40,253 bases of DNA, taken from positions 1-40,253 of the IMG/VR virus record IMGVR_UViG_2740892426_000004; one strand, given 5' to 3'. Made by a program: the position numbers and the translations under genes. Of the stretch, positions 12,976 to 38,713 are shown piece after piece. Each line of letters starts with the position of its first letter. Positions within the stretch are counted from its first letter, which is position 1. Source of the DNA: a virus. Its lineage: Duplodnaviria; Heunggongvirae; Uroviricota; Caudoviricetes. The notes beneath the pieces are model-generated. The model saw only the letters and a list, made by a program, of their open reading frames with translations. It ran no database searches and was not told the origin of the DNA.

Positions 12976-13416
12976 ATGAAAAAACTAACCTTTGAAATTC
13001 GATCTCCAGCACATCAGCAAAACGCTATTCACGCGGTACAGCAAATTCTTCCAGACCCAACCAAACCAATCGTAGTAACCATTCAGGAACGCAACCGCAG
13101 CTTAGACCAAAACAGGAAGCTGTGGGCCTGCTTAGGTGACGTCTCTCGTCAGGTTGAATGGCATGGTCGCTGGCTGGATGCAGAAAGCTGGAAGTGTGTG
13201 TTTACCGCAGCATTAAAGCAGCAGGATGTTGTTCCTAACCTTGCCGGGAATGGCTTTGTGGTAATAGGCCAGTCAACCAGCAGGATGCGTGTAAGCGAAT
13301 TTGCGGAGCTATTAGAGCTTATACAGGCATTTGGTACAGAGCGTGGCGTTAAGTGGTCAGACGAAGCGCGACTGGCTCTGGAGTGGAAAGCAAGATGGGG
13401 AGACAGGGCTGCATGA
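12976..13416 (+). CDS. ninB: NinB recombination protein
   Basis: MKKLTFEIRSPAHQQNAIHAVQQILPDPTKPIVVTIQERNRSLDQNRKLWACLGDV... recalled near-identity to lambda NinB; track ORF has 6-codon upstream extension. Confidence 0.9.
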   Translation: MKKLTFEIRSPAHQQNAIHAVQQILPDPTKPIVVTIQERNRSLDQNRKLWACLGDVSRQVEWHGRWLDAESWKCVFTAALKQQDVVPNLAGNGFVVIGQSTSRMRVSEFAELLELIQAFGTERGVKWSDEARLALEWKARWGDRAA

Positions 13417-14285
13417 TAAATGTCGTTAGTTTCTCCGGTGGCAGGACGTCAGCATATTTGCTCTGGCTAATGGAGCAAAAGCGACAGGCAGGTGAAGACG
13501 TGCATTACGTTTTCATGGATACAGGTTGTGAACACCCGATGACATATCGGTTTATCCGCGAAGTTGTGAAGTTCTGGGATATACCGCTCACTGTATTGCA
13601 GGTTGATATCAACCCAGAGCCTGGGCAGCCAAATGGTTATACGGTATGGGAGCCAAAGGATATTCAGACGCGAATGCCTGTTCTGAAGCCATTTATCGAT
13701 ATGGTAAAGAAATATGGCACTCCATACGTCGGCGGCGCGTTCTGCACTGACAGATTAAAACTCGTTCCCTTCACCAAATACTGTGATGACCATTTCGGGC
13801 GAGGGAATTACACCACGTGGATTGGCATCAGAGCTGATGAACCGAAGCGGCTAAAGCCAAAGCCTGGAATCAGATATCTTGCTGAGCTGTCAGACTTTGA
13901 GAAGGAAGATATCCTCGCATGGTGGAAGCAACAACCATTCGATTTGCAAATACCGGAACATCTCGGTAACTGCATATTCTGCATTAAAAAATCAACGCAA
14001 AAAATCGGACTTGCCTGCAAAGATGAGGAGGGATTGCAGCGTGTTTTTAATGAGGTCATCACGGGATCGCATGTGCGTGACGGACATCGGGAAACACCAA
14101 AGGAGATTATGTACCGAGGAAGAATGTCGCTGGATGGTATCGCGAAAATGTATTCAGAAAATGATTATCAAGCCCTGTATCAGGACATGGTACGAGCTAA
14201 AAGATTCGATACCGGCTCTTGTTCTGAGTCATGCGAAATATTTGGAGGGCAGCTTTATTTCGACTTCGGGAGGGAAGCTGCATGA
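13413..14285 (+). CDS. ninC: NinC-like protein (PAPS-reductase-like fold, 290 aa)
   Basis: Starts [15 protein letters not shown] (SGGxxS P-loop-like motif); size matches lambda NinC. Confidence 0.8.
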
Positions 14286-14771: not shown

Positions 14772-15033
14772 TTTCTCTGAGCTTATTTCCTTCAAAAAAG
14801 ACAGAGAAGAAATGCGGACTGAATCTGTCTATTACGTTCAACACCGGAATAAACGCTCGGTGCTTGATCAGAATCTGATTATTACCGGAGACCTGGCATT
14901 CAGAACATATAAGGCCAGCATGGAAATGAAGGATTTCCCTAAATGTGGTTCTGAAAGAGAAGCCGCGTTAAAGCTGGCTGAGTGGATGCAGAGAATGGCT
15001 GCTGCAATTGAGAATTACTGGAGTGAACCATAA
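14764..15033 (+). CDS. hypothetical nin-region protein (89 aa)
   Basis: [35 protein letters not shown]...; no recognisable motif. Confidence 0.5.
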   Translation: MSDFSELISFKKDREEMRTESVYYVQHRNKRSVLDQNLIITGDLAFRTYKASMEMKDFPKCGSEREAALKLAEWMQRMAAAIENYWSEP

Positions 15034-15323
15034 TGGCTAACCTACGCAAAGAAGCACGCGGCAGAGAATGCCAGGTACGTATTTACGGCGTATGCAATGG
15101 CAATCCTGAAACTACAGTTCTGGCACATTACCGGATGGCTGGAATTTGCGGAACGGGAATGAAGCCTGACGACCTGATCGGCGCATGGGCTTGTAGCGCG
15201 TGTCACGATGAAATCGACCGACGCACCCATAACCTCGACAACAAAGACGCCAGACTTTACCACCTCGAAGGCGTGATCAGGACGCAGGCGATACTGCTGA
15301 AGGAGGGGAAGATTAAGTCATGA
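15033..15323 (+). CDS. ybcO: DUF1364 putative nuclease, YbcO-like
   Basis: 96-aa ORF MANLRKEARGRECQVRIYGVCNGNPETTVLAH... Cys/His-rich; recalled similarity to DLP12 YbcO. Confidence 0.75.
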   Translation: MANLRKEARGRECQVRIYGVCNGNPETTVLAHYRMAGICGTGMKPDDLIGAWACSACHDEIDRRTHNLDNKDARLYHLEGVIRTQAILLKEGKIKS

Positions 15324-15844
15324 ACGGTAAAAGATATCCAACACAAAAAGAAATCAATGAATTGTATGAATATAATAGCGAAACAGGTTTGTTTATATAC
15401 AAGAGAAGAGAAAGTGTAAGAGAGTGCTGGAATTCAACATATGCCGGTAAGATTGCTGGTTCTATAGATGAAAAAGGATACGTTCGTATATCTGTAAATA
15501 AAAAAGTTTGTCGAGCTCATAGAATCGCATGGATATCCTTTTATGGAAGTGAACCTGATGGGGAAATTGACCACATAAATGGAATTAAAAGTGATAACAG
15601 AATATGCAATTTGCGCGTTGTAGATGATAAACAGAACTCAAGGAACAGAAAAAAGCCTATTAATAATCGCTCTGGAGTAATGGGTGTTGCCTACTATAAG
15701 AAGAATAAAAAGTGGGGCGCATATATAAACAGTGATAATAAAAAGATATTTCTTGGATTATACGATGACATATCTCTAGCCGTTAATGCCAGAAAATTGG
15801 CGGAATCACGATTGGGGTATCACCATAATCATGGGAGAGGATAA
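15320..15844 (+). CDS. HNH homing endonuclease with AP2-type DNA-binding domain
   Basis: HNH motif GEIDHINGIKSDNRICNLRVV; C-terminal AP2-like SGVMGVAYYKKNKKWGAYI; markedly AT-rich relative to flanking nin genes. Confidence 0.8.
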   Translation: MNGKRYPTQKEINELYEYNSETGLFIYKRRESVRECWNSTYAGKIAGSIDEKGYVRISVNKKVCRAHRIAWISFYGSEPDGEIDHINGIKSDNRICNLRVVDDKQNSRNRKKPINNRSGVMGVAYYKKNKKWGAYINSDNKKIFLGLYDDISLAVNARKLAESRLGYHHNHGRG

Positions 15845-16207
15845 ATGGCAGAATACAGATTCACACTTCCGTACCCACCGTCGCTGAATACCTACTGGCG
15901 AAGACGGGGAAGCCAATACTACATCAGCGATAAAGGCCAGAAATACCGAAAAGATGTACAGCAAATAATCCGCCAACTCAAGTTAGACATTTTCACCAAA
16001 TCACGACTCCGCATCAAAGTCATCGCAGACGTTCCAGACTCCCGCCGCCGCGACCTCGACAACATTCTTAAAGGTTTACTCGACTCCCTTATCCATGCCG
16101 GATTTGCGGAAGACGACGAGCAATTCGACGACATTCGTGTAATTCGTGGTGTGAAAGTACCAGGAGGAAGGCTTGGAATAAAAATCACCGAACTGGAGAA
16201 CGTATGA
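15845..16207 (+). CDS. rusA: RusA-family Holliday junction resolvase
   Basis: 120-aa ORF MAEYRFTLPYPPSLNTYWRRRG...RRRDLDNILKGLLDSL...; characteristic RusA motifs. Confidence 0.85.
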   Translation: MAEYRFTLPYPPSLNTYWRRRGSQYYISDKGQKYRKDVQQIIRQLKLDIFTKSRLRIKVIADVPDSRRRDLDNILKGLLDSLIHAGFAEDDEQFDDIRVIRGVKVPGGRLGIKITELENV

Positions 16208-16970: not shown

Positions 16971-17045
16971 GGGTCAGTCGTATAAAGGTCATTACGGAAG
17001 GCTGTTAACCTTCTTATCGTGGTTCGAGTCCACGCTGTCCCGCCA
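16971..17045 (+). tRNA. tRNA-Asn(GUU)-like, with two stem mismatches
   Basis: 75-nt cloverleaf by manual folding: anticodon arm GAAGG-CTGTTAA-CCTTC, T-arm CGTGG-TTCGAGT-CCACG, 3' end CTGTCCC-G-CCA; one mismatch each in acceptor and D stems. Confidence 0.45.
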
Positions 17046-17050
17046 AACAT

Positions 17051-17126
17051 GCTGGTTTAGCTCCAATGGTAGAGCAGTCGCCTTGTAAGCGAATGGGTGG
17101 CGGTTCAAGTCCGTTAATCAGCACCA
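17051..17126 (+). tRNA. tRNA-Thr(UGU)
   Basis: 76-nt cloverleaf: acceptor GCTGGTT/AATCAGC, D-arm GCTC-CAATGGTA-GAGC, anticodon loop CTTGTAA, T-loop TTCAAGT, A73-CCA. Confidence 0.65.
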
Positions 17127-20552: not shown

Positions 20553-21080
20553 ATGGCACTCACCGACAAACAAGAAATGTTCTGTCGCGAGTACCTCATC
20601 GATTTAAATGCCACGCAAGCGGCTATTCGGGCGGGGTACAGCGCAAAGACAGCTAACCGTACCGCATCCGAAAACCTGTCAAAACCTGATATCAAGTTAA
20701 GAATCTCCGAACTGAAAGCGCAACGCAATGATCTTGTTGGTATTAATGCAGAATATGTACTTAATCGCCTTCTTGAAATCGACCAGATGGATGTGCTCGA
20801 CATTCTCCTGCAAAACGGTGAGTTAAAGCCCATTAAAGACTGGCCTAAGGTATGGCGCACAACGCTATCAGGAATGGATGTTATGGAGATGGTATCCGCA
20901 GATAGTGCCGCACTTCTGAAGAAAATCAAATGGCCTGATAAGGTTAAAAACCTCGAACTTCTTGGTAAGCATGTTTCTGTTCAGGCATTTAAAGAACAAT
21001 CTTCTCACGAGCTAACCGGCAAAGACGGCGGCGCAATCCAGATTGAAACATCACCGATGAGCACTCTATTCGGAAAATGA
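20553..21080 (+). CDS. terminase small subunit
   Basis: 175-aa ORF MALTDKQEMFCREYLIDLNATQAAIRAGYSAKTANRTASENL... typical small-terminase HTH N-terminus; immediately upstream of large terminase. Confidence 0.8.
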   Translation: MALTDKQEMFCREYLIDLNATQAAIRAGYSAKTANRTASENLSKPDIKLRISELKAQRNDLVGINAEYVLNRLLEIDQMDVLDILLQNGELKPIKDWPKVWRTTLSGMDVMEMVSADSAALLKKIKWPDKVKNLELLGKHVSVQAFKEQSSHELTGKDGGAIQIETSPMSTLFGK

Positions 21081-22492
21081 CCTCGATTAATCCTATCTTT
21101 GAACCGTTCATTGAGGCGCATCGCTACAAAGTCGCCAAAGGCGGTCGAGGTAGCGGTAAGTCATGGGCAATTGCGAGGCTGCTTGTTGAGGCGGCGCGTC
21201 GGCAGCCTGTGCGTATTCTCTGCGCTCGTGAACTGCAAAACAGTATCAGCGATTCGGTAATCCGGTTGCTTGAAGACACCATAGAGCGGGAAGGGTATTC
21301 GGCTGAGTTTGAAATTCAGCGTTCAATGATTCGTCATCTCGGAACGAATGCTGAATTCATGTTCTACGGCATAAAAAACAACCCGACGAAGATTAAATCG
21401 CTCGAAGGTATTGATATCTGCTGGGTGGAGGAAGCGGAAGCGGTAACGAAGGAATCATGGGATATCCTGATACCAACCATCCGCAAGCCGTTTTCCGAAA
21501 TATGGGTGAGTTTCAACCCTAAGAACATCCTCGACGATACCTATCAGCGATTCGTCGTAAATCCTCCCGATGATATTTGCCTGCTGACGGTGAACTACAC
21601 CGACAATCCGCACTTTCCTGAAGTTCTCCGTCTGGAGATGGAAGAGTGTAAACGCAGAAATCCGACACTGTATCGTCACATCTGGCTTGGTGAGCCGGTA
21701 AGCGCAAGTGATATGGCAATCATCAAACGTGAATGGCTTGAAGCCGCAACCGATGCGCACAAGAAACTCGGATGGAAAGCGAAAGGCGCGGTTGTTTCTG
21801 CTCATGACCCATCAGATACAGGGCCGGATGCTAAAGGTTATGCATCGCGTCACGGTTCGGTAGTTAAGCGCATTGCCGAAGGTCTGCTGATGGACATCAA
21901 CGAGGGGGCTGACTGGGCTACTTCGCTGGCGATTGAAGACGGTGCTGACCACTACTTGTGGGATGGTGATGGTGTCGGTGCAGGGCTACGCAGACAGACA
22001 ACGGAAGCGTTCTCCGGTAAGAAAATCACCGCCACGATGTTCAAGGGCAGCGAATCGCCATTTGATGAAGATGCACCATATCAGGCTGGAGCATGGGCTG
22101 ATGAAGTCGTACAGGGTGACAACGTTCGCACTATTGGTGATGTGTTCCGCAATAAGCGAGCGCAATTCTATTACGCGCTGGCTGACAGGCTGTATCTGAC
22201 ATATCGGGCGGTTGTTCACGGTGAGTATGTGGACCCCGACGACATGCTGAGTTTCGACAAAGAAGCGATAGGCGAGAAGATGCTGGAGAAGCTGTTTGCA
22301 GAACTGACGCAGATTCAGCGCAAATTCAATAACAACGGGAAGCTGGAGCTAATGACTAAGGTCGAAATGAAGCAGAAGCTCGGTATTCCATCTCCTAACC
22401 TGGCTGATGCGCTGATGATGTGTATGCATTGCCCAGAGTCGGCTGCGCAACCCGACTATTCCAGTTACTCAATTCCTTGTGGTGTAGGTTGA
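21077..22492 (+). CDS. terminase large subunit
   Basis: 471-aa ORF with Walker A GGRGSGKS and nuclease-domain acidic residues. Confidence 0.85.
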   Translation: MTSINPIFEPFIEAHRYKVAKGGRGSGKSWAIARLLVEAARRQPVRILCARELQNSISDSVIRLLEDTIEREGYSAEFEIQRSMIRHLGTNAEFMFYGIKNNPTKIKSLEGIDICWVEEAEAVTKESWDILIPTIRKPFSEIWVSFNPKNILDDTYQRFVVNPPDDICLLTVNYTDNPHFPEVLRLEMEECKRRNPTLYRHIWLGEPVSASDMAIIKREWLEAATDAHKKLGWKAKGAVVSAHDPSDTGPDAKGYASRHGSVVKRIAEGLLMDINEGADWATSLAIEDGADHYLWDGDGVGAGLRRQTTEAFSGKKITATMFKGSESPFDEDAPYQAGAWADEVVQGDNVRTIGDVFRNKRAQFYYALADRLYLTYRAVVHGEYVDPDDMLSFDKEAIGEKMLEKLFAELTQIQRKFNNNGKLELMTKVEMKQKLGIPSPNLADALMMCMHCPESAAQPDYSSYSIPCGVG

Positions 22493-35346: not shown

Positions 35347-35445
35347 GATATACCTCAACATACACCCGTTATTGGGCGATTAAATATTGATCTCATTTTA
35401 TAAGTAGTCAATATGGCCCAGGTAAATGCAAAAATTAACCTACCG

Positions 35446-35697
35446 TCAGGTGGGTTTTTTGTACAAATCCTTCAGCGTATCAAACACCATCTTCTTAACA
35501 AGGTCGGACTGCTCATCAGCGATGCGTTCCGCATCGTCTCAATAGCCTGAAATTTTGGATGGCTTTGATACAGCATCAGTCACTATCTGAACTAATTCTG
35601 AATTAAGAGAGCGGCCATTGGATTTGGCTCGCTGTTTTAGTTTTTCCTTTAATTCGTAAGATAGCCGCAGATTAAATTGCGGGTCATCTCTTCCCAT
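35446..35697 (-). pseudogene. mnt: mnt (Mnt ribbon-helix-helix repressor) interrupted by in-frame TGA at codon 53
   Basis: MGRDDPQFNLRLSYELKEKLKQRAKSNGRSLNSELVQIVTDAVSKPSKISGY-stop(TGA 35539-35541)-DDAERIADEQSDLVKKMVFDTLKDLYKKPT; both halves match recalled P22 Mnt; uninterrupted part 35539-35697. Confidence 0.7.
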
Positions 35698-35760
35698 TCT
35701 TGATGCCTCGCTTTTGTGAGTGGATCGGCATCTTATTATCTGCTGGTTGCATCCTCAATA

Positions 35761-35775
35761 AGATCACGGTGGTCT
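35761..35775. promoter_or_regulatory. Mnt operator-like near-palindrome AGATCACGGTGGTCT
   Basis: Resembles recalled P22 Omnt core (AGGTCCACGGTGGACCT), located upstream of mnt. Confidence 0.45.
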
Positions 35776-35974
35776 TGTTGTATGATTGATAATGTTTCAC
35801 TGCAGCCACACTGCGGCGATTCCTTGTATTTGGAGCAAATTAAATGACAGATATTATAAATAGGAATTGTTATTTAATAATGTTTGAAAATAAAAATCAT
35901 GGACGATAGGAATAAAGGTAGTACTTGTTTTTATTTTTGTAAGTGACGCATTAAGCGCATAAATAATATGCCTG

Positions 35975-36003
35975 TTGATCAAGATTCTTGAGTATTGTAA
36001 AAT
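35975..36003 (+). promoter_or_regulatory. candidate sigma70 promoter upstream of tailspike
   Basis: -35 TTGATC, 17-nt spacer, -10 TAAAAT in AT-rich region. Confidence 0.35.
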
Positions 36004-36127
36004 AATCGTTTTGTTCATGTTGCATGGTTTTTAAATGAATAGAAGGTTATTTTTCAAAACAATTGCATCTTTGTCTGCAGTCATTCCGTTTTCTTCAATA
36101 TCTAAATCTTCAAACAGGATGACTAAT

Positions 36128-38713
36128 ATGCCTGATATAACCCCAAATGTTGTGATAGGTATGCCATCGCAACTCTTCACAATGGCTAGCTCTTTTAAAA
36201 CCGTAGCAAATGGAAAAATTTATATCGGTAAGATTGACACAGATCCGGTAAATCCAGAAAACCAGATTCCAGTATATCTGGAACGAGAAGATGGTACTTA
36301 TGTTCAGGTGCCACAGCCAATCGTTATCAATGCTGCTGGATACCCGGTATACAACGGACAGATTTCCAAATTCGTTACCGTGCAAGGCCATTCTATGGCT
36401 GTTTACGATGCATATGGTACGCAGCAGTTCTATTTTCCGAATGTGCTTAAGTACGATCCAGACCAATTAAGACAACAATTAGAAGACCCGGAAGGTGCTA
36501 AAAAATATCATGAATTGCAGATGTCTCGGTGGCGTGATGACGCTGACCCTCGCGGATGGGGAGCAAAAGGTGATGGCATCACCGATGACACATTATCTTT
36601 TCAAGAGTTAGAAAAACAAATCACAGGAAGGATTGTTGATCTAAGGGGTAATACATATATAACAGATCAAGTTTTTGATGGAAATAAGTATATAAATGGC
36701 TATTTTCGCACAGAGAATCGATTACTGCCAGATGCTGATTTTACTGAAAAAAGAATACAAACTATAAAAAAGGGGATGTATACAGGTTTCAGACCTTCTA
36801 CTCCTAATCATGTTAAGTCAGGGTTGCGACTGGCAACAATTAAAAATACTGTCATACAGGGTGCTGTTCTTGATTATTATGACAGTGTTCTTTATTGCTT
36901 GGTAAATGTGAGTGGCAGCGTTAGTTCTGGTGACGAAGTTAATAAAGTTGTTGCTTATAATTGGTTTGGGAATGAAGAGTTAACTCCTCTTTGGGAGACT
37001 AAAGGTAGTAGAGAATTAGGACATCAATGTCTTGGTTTAACCATAGGGCGCGTTGGTTTTCGTAACACAAGAGGCCAGTTACAGATATGGGGGTTAGCTG
37101 GCACAGCTAAAGGAGAGGATCGCGCAAAGTATATCACCAGATTCACCCCTACTGATGGTGGTGAAATTGAACCAGAGTTTTTTCTCATATGGGAAGATGG
37201 TTACGAGAATCAGGTAAATGTTTTATGCACCGACCCTATGAGTCGATGGCTGATTACTACAGCAAAACGTTATGTTGGCCCTGGTGAGAGCCCATCAACA
37301 CCAGATCAAATTCGCTATTATGTAAAAGTATTTGATACCAGCAAATTTATTAACCCGCAGGCGTACAATTACGATTATCGTAATGAAGCAACTTTTGAAT
37401 TTGAAATTGCCGATTTTGTGAGGGATATGCAAACAGTTGCGTGTGACGGTACTGCTATTTATTTTTGTCAGGCTGGATCTGCATATTCTTCAACCAGAAA
37501 ATATTTGCATCAGTACACACTTGATGGTGTTTATCTTGGGGTGCAGCAAATACAGGCAGGTGCAGGAAGAGCCTATGAAATAGCAGATCCAAATGATACC
37601 GGAACGCCAGATGTTAGCAATCTTACATATGAACCAGAAGCAATGTTTTTCCGTATGATTGCAGGTGGGTATGACCTTGTAATGGGGAATACAAATGGCA
37701 TACCAGATGGTGATAGTGGGCGAGAAACTACATTTTACACATTAATGCCACAACAGGTAATGCATGTAAAAACAACATCAAGAAATCAGCCTGGTATTAT
37801 CATTGATTCAACCCATGATATTGTCACTAACTCTGGTTTGTTAAGCCTTGGTAAAATTATGCCTGGTGGTGAAGTCATAGAGCAGGCAAACCTTGATGAC
37901 AAAGGATTCACTGTTTCGAGGGCAACAACACAAGCCGCCCGTTATGATGCAAAGAATAGGTTACGGAATGTAACTTTTCATGTTAGTGAAAAAGGTGATA
38001 CCGGTATTTATGACTTTACCAATGCTCAATGGATATTTAAATCTCCCTTATCAACATCTTCATATTCGTATATCGGTCAGTCAGCGGAGGTTAATGGCTA
38101 TATAAGTGCTAATAAAGATAATACGTCATCATGTGGGACATCATCTAAACGGTGGACGCAAGTATATGCAACTAATGGGGCAATAAATACTTCAGACCAG
38201 ACATTGAAAACAAAGCCACTGACAGTAGAGCAACTTTCAGAAATCATGGAGGTGGATCAGGATGCAATTCTTGACGCATGGGGTGACGTAAATATTATCG
38301 TTTACCAGTGGTTGTCCGATATTAAGGCTAAAGGTTCGGATACTGCTCGTTGGCATTTCGGAGCAATTGCACAGCAGGTAAGAGATGCGTTTCTTGCAAA
38401 GGGGATAGATGGAACAAGATTTGGCTTGCTATGTCATGATAAATGGGATGATGAGTACCAACCTGTAATGGCACAGCGCAAGGTGTCATTTATAGCTAAA
38501 TCCCCTGAAGGAGAAGACATCGTTCGCGAATACTTTGAAGAATACGATACTGGTGACACGGAACTGGTTGTACATGCTGGTGAGCGTTGGGGATTGCGTC
38601 CAGATGAATGTTTGTGGTTGGAGGCTGCATTCCAGCGAAGAAGGTGTGAACGCATTGAGTCTCGTTTAACAGAGCTTGAATTGATAATTAAAAAAGCAAA
38701 AGAGATAGAGTAG
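36128..38713 (+). CDS. tailspike protein: P22-type head-binding domain, GDG-motif central domain, C-terminal intramolecular-chaperone-like domain
   Basis: From [43 protein letters not shown] (recalled P22 gp9 N-terminus); AGGA RBS 9 nt upstream; central [11 protein letters not shown] motif; C-terminal ~170 aa from NTSDQTLK resemble S74-type chaperone domain; track ORF starts in frame at 36035 without RBS. Confidence 0.8.

Follow-up and report, generated by a model that had tools for sequence, protein, structure and literature searches.

The locus examined here raises the question of how a gene for an HNH endonuclease came to lie between ybcO and rusA in the nin region of a lambdoid prophage, and whether it is a mobile element in its own right, inert cargo or a gene enlisted by the phage. 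The window, by which we mean the whole stretch of 40,253 nucleotides that was analysed, holds a CUS-3-like P22-type prophage as the host element of this insert, and CUS-3, the nearest overall relative of that prophage, does not carry it. An initial annotation made from the sequence had placed a 174-aa ORF between a ybcO-like gene and rusA, and the ORF is found exactly there, on the plus strand and with an ATG start:

15033 to 15323, plus strand: ybcO (DUF1364, putative nuclease), the upstream flank (Pfam YbcO, 1.8e-44).
15320 to 15844, plus strand: candidate homing endonuclease ORF, intact, 174 aa, GC 0.349.
15845 to 16207, plus strand: rusA (Holliday-junction resolvase), the downstream flank (Pfam RusA, 2.4e-16).

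By Pfam assignment, the genes leading up to the endonuclease ORF are ninB, a PAPS-reductase-like gene, ninF, an 89-aa ORF and ybcO, and those 3' of it are rusA, ninH and Q, in that order. The succession ybcO-rusA-ninH is characteristic of lambdoid phages of the HK97/HK022/HK620/CUS-3 type, and in lambda itself the corresponding slot is occupied by ninG/rap. The interruption of gene order proposed in the initial annotation is borne out by 75 insert-free phage records, but the order is properly termed lambdoid-collinear rather than lambda-collinear. A windowed GC calculation also upheld the AT-richness that had been claimed for the ORF relative to its neighbours (ybcO, 0.529; rusA, 0.479): its GC3 is 0.286, the whole-window GC is 0.470, and the GC of the ORF (z = -3.1) is matched or undercut in just 0.8% of all 525-nt windows.

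Several further features of the window were recorded alongside. The slot between ninB and ninE/ninF (13353-14285) is a variable cargo position, filled here by the PAPS-reductase-family gene and in other prophages by an N6-adenine methyltransferase, a cytosine methyltransferase or ninX. Genes for tRNA-Asn (GTT) and tRNA-Thr (TGT) lie at 16971-17126, between Q and the holin, and are also found in some of the other prophages examined. A second and larger low-GC stretch (35354-37800, GC down to 0.33) lies in ORF 36035..38713, the gene for a tailspike of 892 aa. This protein combines a P22 head-binding N-terminus with an endosialidase N-terminal extension and also has an S74 chaperone domain, which makes it a CUS-3-like, probably K1-capsule-specific receptor module of foreign composition. 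At the left edge, outside the prophage core, positions 1-1248 encode a LacY-family sugar symporter (Pfam LacY_symp, 2.8e-192); in the 'phage' record vB_EcoP-611R6 the match starts at window base 1 and a 'sucrose transport protein' is annotated, so that this record may include host-derived DNA or the symporter gene may travel with the prophage.

The identity of the encoded protein rests on two regions, an N-terminal catalytic core and a C-terminal module:

15512 to 15643, plus strand: HNH_3 catalytic domain, residues 65-108 (Pfam HNH_3, I-HmuI alignments, family-invariant columns).
15668 to 15814, plus strand: AP2-type DNA-binding domain, residues ~117-165, three strands and a helix (family profile and fold).

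The HNH assignment is confirmed, with a Pfam HNH_3 score of 60.7 bits against a cut-off of 24.8 bits (E 1e-16) and a match to PHROG_99, 'HNH endonuclease', at 4e-63. The best solved relative by sequence is I-HmuI, the homing endonuclease of SPO1, whose match strengthens from E 0.0096 with the single sequence to 7e-6 with a profile of the 43-member aligned family (the window protein and 42 relatives), and to which the fold is also similar. Residues D84, H85, N97 and N106 align with D74, H75, N87 and N96 of I-HmuI, its catalytic and metal-binding residues; across the 43 family members the first three are invariant and N106 is at least 90% conserved. The C-terminal AP2 domain that had been proposed is likewise supported. 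The window protein by itself has no match to Pfam AP2 (PF00847) at E<=0.01, and 28 of the 43 aligned family members do match it (best 2e-10), the family profile recovers the AP2 domains of WRI1 (5.5e-9) and TEM1 (5.5e-5), and the AlphaFold model (pLDDT 94.2, pTM 0.81) shows three strands followed by a helix at its C-terminal end, with the three-stranded antiparallel sheet packed on the C-terminal helix as in the AP2 fold. The window protein is, then, an I-HmuI-like HNH core with AP2 as its C-terminal DNA-binding module. NCBIfam contains no family for it, and the sole PADLOC match is to a 'homing endonuclease' model at 1.6e-5; a defence-system reading was dropped because that model is generic.

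How the gene sits between its neighbours becomes clear when the junctions of insert-free relatives are aligned, as the initial annotation had suggested, an exercise that defines the insertion site at the level of codons:

15320 to 15326, plus strand: ATGAACG, the start and first codons common to the endonuclease gene and ancestral rusA (sequence and alignments).
15326 to 15850, plus strand: net inserted segment of 525 nt, in frame between codons 2 and 3 of ancestral rusA (alignments and in-silico deletion).
15833 to 15847, plus strand: GGGAGAGG, comprising a Shine-Dalgarno-like sequence, the endonuclease TAA stop and the new rusA ATG (read from the sequence).

Removing the insert in silico restores a gapless empty junction, with a boundary ambiguity of 1 nt (one G). 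At the upstream side the TGA of ybcO overlaps the ATG of the endonuclease gene (ATGA), just as the rusA start overlaps the ybcO stop (ATGA) in the empty relatives vB_EcoP-611R6, mEp235 and HK620; as read from the junction sequence, the translational coupling of rusA to ybcO is inherited by the endonuclease through this ATGA-coupled start. At the downstream side the GGGAGAGG segment is identical across 16 viral contigs, and the new start of rusA (ATG-GCA) is brought by the end of the insert; the RusA N-terminus reads MAEYRFT with the insert and MNEYQFV without it. Because the insert supplies a stop, a ribosome-binding site and a new rusA ATG, the early-right (nin) operon remains intact and expression of rusA should be preserved. 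The nin genes are known to be packed tightly through ATGA overlaps (PMC8022706), an organisation that the insert keeps, and a low cost to the carrier would therefore be expected.

A scan of the plus strand near the gene found no promoter or terminator of its own above shuffled expectation; the idea of an autonomous expression cassette was rejected on this result, which also makes it probable that lysogens do not express the gene. On the minus strand, a sigma-70-like match (TTAACG, an 18-nt spacer and TATAAT; 10/12) lies within the endonuclease gene at 15757-15786, and is probably a by-product of AT-richness, because the regional count of such matches is no higher than in shuffled sequence.

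Is the gene a regular resident of this junction? The initial annotation had named its presence at the same site in all lambda-like nin regions, with a base composition like that of its surroundings, as the observation that would speak against its reading, and the opposite distribution was found. The insert occurs in 33 of 5426 complete E. coli genomes, at >=99% identity and always chromosomal and at the same site, and about 900 of the same genomes (~17%), all potential targets, have the empty junction; occupancy is thus ~3.5% of junctions, with ~96% of E. coli junctions lacking the gene. None of the 75 phage records with ~97% flank identity contains it, the flanks matching there as two abutting pieces, and searching 50,697 phage records with the insert by megablast gave no match, protein-level relatives in that set having <60% identity. 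In IMG/VR, 17 contigs carry the insert at >=99% identity, and the exact protein is present on 620 contigs, every one of them named Escherichia. A scan of one genome per species returned a single match, a 41% relative in a Kiritimatiellae MAG, so the representative E. coli genome is evidently without the insert. One copy, in E. coli 1008S19 (locus L006, 2248-2945), is truncated, its first 87 nt, ybcO and the whole upstream replication/nin segment being missing, with an IS1A just upstream of the remaining endonuclease fragment.

Outside this tight Escherichia cluster, identity falls to 55% or below, the exception being a 96-aa Symbiopectobacterium fragment at 75%. When IMG/VR was searched for more diverged orthologues whose right junction is intact, no match fell in the range from 52% to 99% identity, and phage homologues at 35-48% identity number in the thousands and are annotated as HNH or homing endonucleases. 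The Symbiopectobacterium fragment, the nearest relative outside E. coli, belongs to an orthologue with 73% nucleotide identity on a contig where ybcO (82% amino acid identity) ends in the same ATGA overlap, from which the orthologue begins with ATGAATGGC and reads 'MNGKNYPTQKE…'. It too is AT-rich (GC 0.40 vs 0.57 for ybcO), and it has decayed, a ~170-nt insertion breaking the gene and a repeat element truncating it. The insertion and the inverted-repeat element (L036, 615-790 and 960-1080) are both bordered by GGCTTTGTTGAATAAAT, which has the look of a small repeat or MITE-type element. As this orthologue lies at the ybcO junction, and as ybcO, rusA and nin genes are absent from the surroundings of all 66 distant relatives examined, this lineage alone tracks the ybcO junction. 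A search of the literature for a description of this particular insert found none.

If the insert had arrived once and descended with its flanks, insert and flanks would share one history, and the filled loci point elsewhere. The filled prophages differ in repressor, in replication module (DnaB-type or toprim-type) and in terminase, and show four different genes upstream of ybcO and three Q types. Among the 23 fully analysable filled loci there are 22 distinct ybcO-insert-rusA haplotypes, all with identical junctions. A site-by-site table of nine filled and eight empty ybcO-linked loci, plus two reference loci, contains no insert-specific SNP in ybcO, and allele blocks of ybcO are common to filled and empty loci, including insert-free phages. 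The mean pairwise difference is 0.007 in the insert compared with 0.039 in ybcO and 0.030 in rusA, making the insert 4-5 times less diverse than its surroundings. Eleven pairs of loci have no difference in 525 insert positions and up to 19 in 287 positions of ybcO and 20 in 327 of rusA; flank divergence in these identical-insert pairs is 4-7%, with the nearest mismatches 2 nt upstream of the ATG and at +45 in rusA. Constraint at the protein level cannot account for the low diversity of the insert, since the flank differences are largely silent. Judged by these alignments, the insert is younger than its host alleles and has been transferred between them; its recent spread has taken it into Escherichia lambdoid prophages that had diverged beforehand, in each case into the same site. 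Of its 13 segregating sites, nine are synonymous and four non-synonymous, and all ORFs examined are intact, a pattern that suggests purifying selection on the endonuclease protein, now or recently.

The flank beside the insertion point carries a further difference between filled and empty alleles:

15856 to 15865, plus strand: 10-nt substitution cluster, C AGA TT C ACA in filled and T CAG TT T GTG in empty alleles (haplotype table, reconstruction, genome-wide counts).

This change, from TCAGTTTGTG in empty to CAGATTCACA in filled alleles, corresponds to rusA nt 12-21, lies 6-15 nt downstream of the insertion point and goes with the change of the RusA N-terminus from MNEYQFV to MAEYRFT. The cluster accompanies the insert at every ybcO-linked junction examined; in a genome-wide E. 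coli count the full-length variant rusA 5' end is confined to the 33 filled genomes, and it was found in no sequenced phage. Two insert-free genomes have a similar 'MNEYRFT' rusA 5' end, located downstream of an ant gene instead of ybcO. Because a similar allele thus exists without the insert, the cluster may be an imported allele fragment and not a selected immunity change, and on the same ground we gave up the claim that the variant arose by immunity selection. We regard it as a candidate target-site or immunity determinant, a co-conversion tract or a remnant of an allele that housed the gene earlier; on the strength of its linkage, it most likely marks the recognition region. Position 21 also varies among empty alleles. 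Other rusA positions were rejected as insert-specific, 4-6 being the insert itself and 27 and 33 varying in empty alleles.

Taken together, these data favour, with a probability of roughly 0.8, a free-standing homing endonuclease gene of the HNH_3 (I-HmuI-like) plus AP2 type at the ybcO-rusA junction, and the best reading of the comparisons is that it is active or was so recently. Three properties expected of such elements are found together: presence or absence at one precise site, an age below that of the flanks with horizontal movement into diverged alleles, and filled/empty sequence differences near the insertion point, here the 10-nt cluster with its candidate role in immunity. The 'free-standing selfish homing endonuclease' of the initial annotation is thereby supported in silico by the one-site polymorphism, the identical junctions in different prophage backgrounds, the low insert diversity, the intact ORFs with their conserved catalytic residues and the linked rusA cluster. 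In the mechanism that we propose, the gene would be expressed from the early-right (nin) operon during lytic growth, and by analogy with I-HmuI the N-terminal sheet and the AP2 domain of the protein would together contact ~20-30 bp at the empty junction, the likely site being the opening ~25 nt of rusA in its common 'MNEYQFV' form. Nicking or cutting of this site would be the task of the HNH residues D84/H85/N97/N106, and phage and host recombination would then mend the break with the filled allele as template, in co-infection or upon superinfection of a lysogen. The 10-nt rusA variant would then either shield filled alleles from re-cutting or represent an obligatorily co-converted tract.

Given how freely lambdoid phages recombine, ordinary homologous exchange in the conserved ybcO/rusA flanks could move the insert without nuclease activity, and the gene might accordingly be a nuclease gene inserted once, irrelevant now or only formerly active, and shuffled by ordinary recombination. 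Linkage does decay within a few nucleotides across the region, whether an allele is filled or empty, the mosaicism of nin regions is high (this comparison; PMC8022706), and occupancy is low (33 vs ~900). Such passive carriage is nevertheless improbable given the intact ORFs, the synonymous bias of the SNPs and the conserved catalytic residues, as well as the orthologue at the same site in another genus and the compact substitution cluster directly beside the insertion point. Insert diversity is also far below that of the flanks, synonymous sites included, which indicates that the insert spread faster than the flanks coalesce.

Two further readings give the nuclease a use to its carrier, and we consider both very improbable. 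The position of the gene between two predicted or known nucleases with which it is co-transcribed, and the existence of domesticated HNH proteins in HK97-like phages (PMC10448857), would suit a domesticated phage function, for instance as a partner of YbcO and RusA in recombination or replication, or as a packaging protein comparable to the HNH associated with the HK97 terminase. Yet the gene is missing from all 75 phages with near-identical flanks, CUS-3 among them, and from ~96% of E. coli junctions, its foreign base composition speaks against a long-resident function, and the terminase is not adjacent, its large subunit being encoded at 21077..22492; the suggestion in the initial annotation that the gene had been co-opted by the phage accordingly finds no support. 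I-HmuI and I-HmuII mediate competition between SPO1 and SP82, and the nuclease could similarly serve as a weapon that cuts empty-site lambdoid rivals (marker exclusion), a role that overlaps with homing. Membership of the I-HmuI family, a potential target in ~17% of E. coli genomes and the generic PADLOC hit would agree with this, but with no promoter of its own detected, expression in lysogens is unlikely, and partner genes of a defence system are absent.

Further HNH genes were noted in the nin regions of other filled prophages (L011, 7949-8455; L015, 1432-1938 and 14-625), one of them splitting ninF (WP_001244575.1) and another upstream of ninB. These two belong to the same HNH_3-AP2 family, with 38-39% identity to the window protein, and the nin region may be a hotspot for HNH-AP2 elements. 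In one filled prophage a gene of the GIY-YIG nuclease family is annotated just after the lysis genes (L014, 6471-6525) and may be another homing-endonuclease-like element. A more ambitious and decidedly tentative proposal joins these points: that active homing occurs among temperate lambdoid phages of E. coli, with the first ~25 nt of the common rusA as site and 'RFT' as natural immunity allele, that at least two HNH-AP2 paralogues have nin sites of their own (inside ninF and upstream of ninB), and that endonuclease-triggered conversion helps to create sharp mosaic boundaries.

Homing by free-standing endonucleases has been worked out mainly in virulent phages (T4, SPO1, ICP1), and the present candidate sits in the best-understood group of temperate phages. 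E. coli, a host in which cleavage assays and phage crosses are easy to do, supplies a natural panel: ~900 sites are empty, dozens are filled, and one rusA variant is a candidate for immunity. If active, the gene would offer a simple test of whether nuclease-driven gene conversion contributes to lambdoid mosaic boundaries, together with a new site-specific nuclease that has an AP2 recognition module; if inactive, it would be merely another annotated prophage 'HNH endonuclease'.

HNH-AP2 free-standing homing endonucleases are already known as a class, and what is distinctive here is a clean population-genomic signature in model temperate phages. With I-HmuI of the Bacillus phage SPO1 (PDB 1u3e) the window protein shares ~26% identity; I-HmuI, however, is the product of a group I intron and has a helix-turn-helix domain at its C-terminus, whereas the window gene is free-standing and its product ends in AP2. 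The HNH-AP2 endonucleases of cyanobacteria, protists and phages have the same N-terminal HNH and C-terminal AP2, an architecture that PMC10448857, citing earlier work (its reference 45), treats as an already recognised homing endonuclease family, and Pfam HNH_3 and AP2 are both matched by 28 of the 43 aligned members of the family studied here; from these, the window lineage is distinguished by a candidate target of its own, the ybcO-rusA junction of lambdoid prophages. The HK97 gp74-like, terminase-associated HNH proteins are a poor match, as ~5 kb separate the window gene, in the nin region, from the terminase genes downstream of it, and relatives lack it. The seg and mob genes of T4-type phages resemble the window gene in being inserted between other genes and not within introns or inteins ('intronless homing'), and they share with it presence/absence polymorphism between close relatives, flank differences beside the insertion point and expression from a host operon. 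They differ in their carrier, a virulent phage as opposed to a temperate lambdoid prophage, and in their enzymes, Seg being GIY-YIG and Mob an HNH with a zinc finger and not AP2 (PMC10448857). Finally, IPA-HNH of the Vibrio phage ICP1 (Barth et al. 2023, PMC10448857) combines, as the window protein does, an HNH with a C-terminal AP2, and its genes stand, like the window gene, at boundaries of inter-phage genetic exchange; by its published description the IPA-HNH HNH is too divergent for Pfam HNH_3, which the window protein matches strongly, and this sets the two apart.
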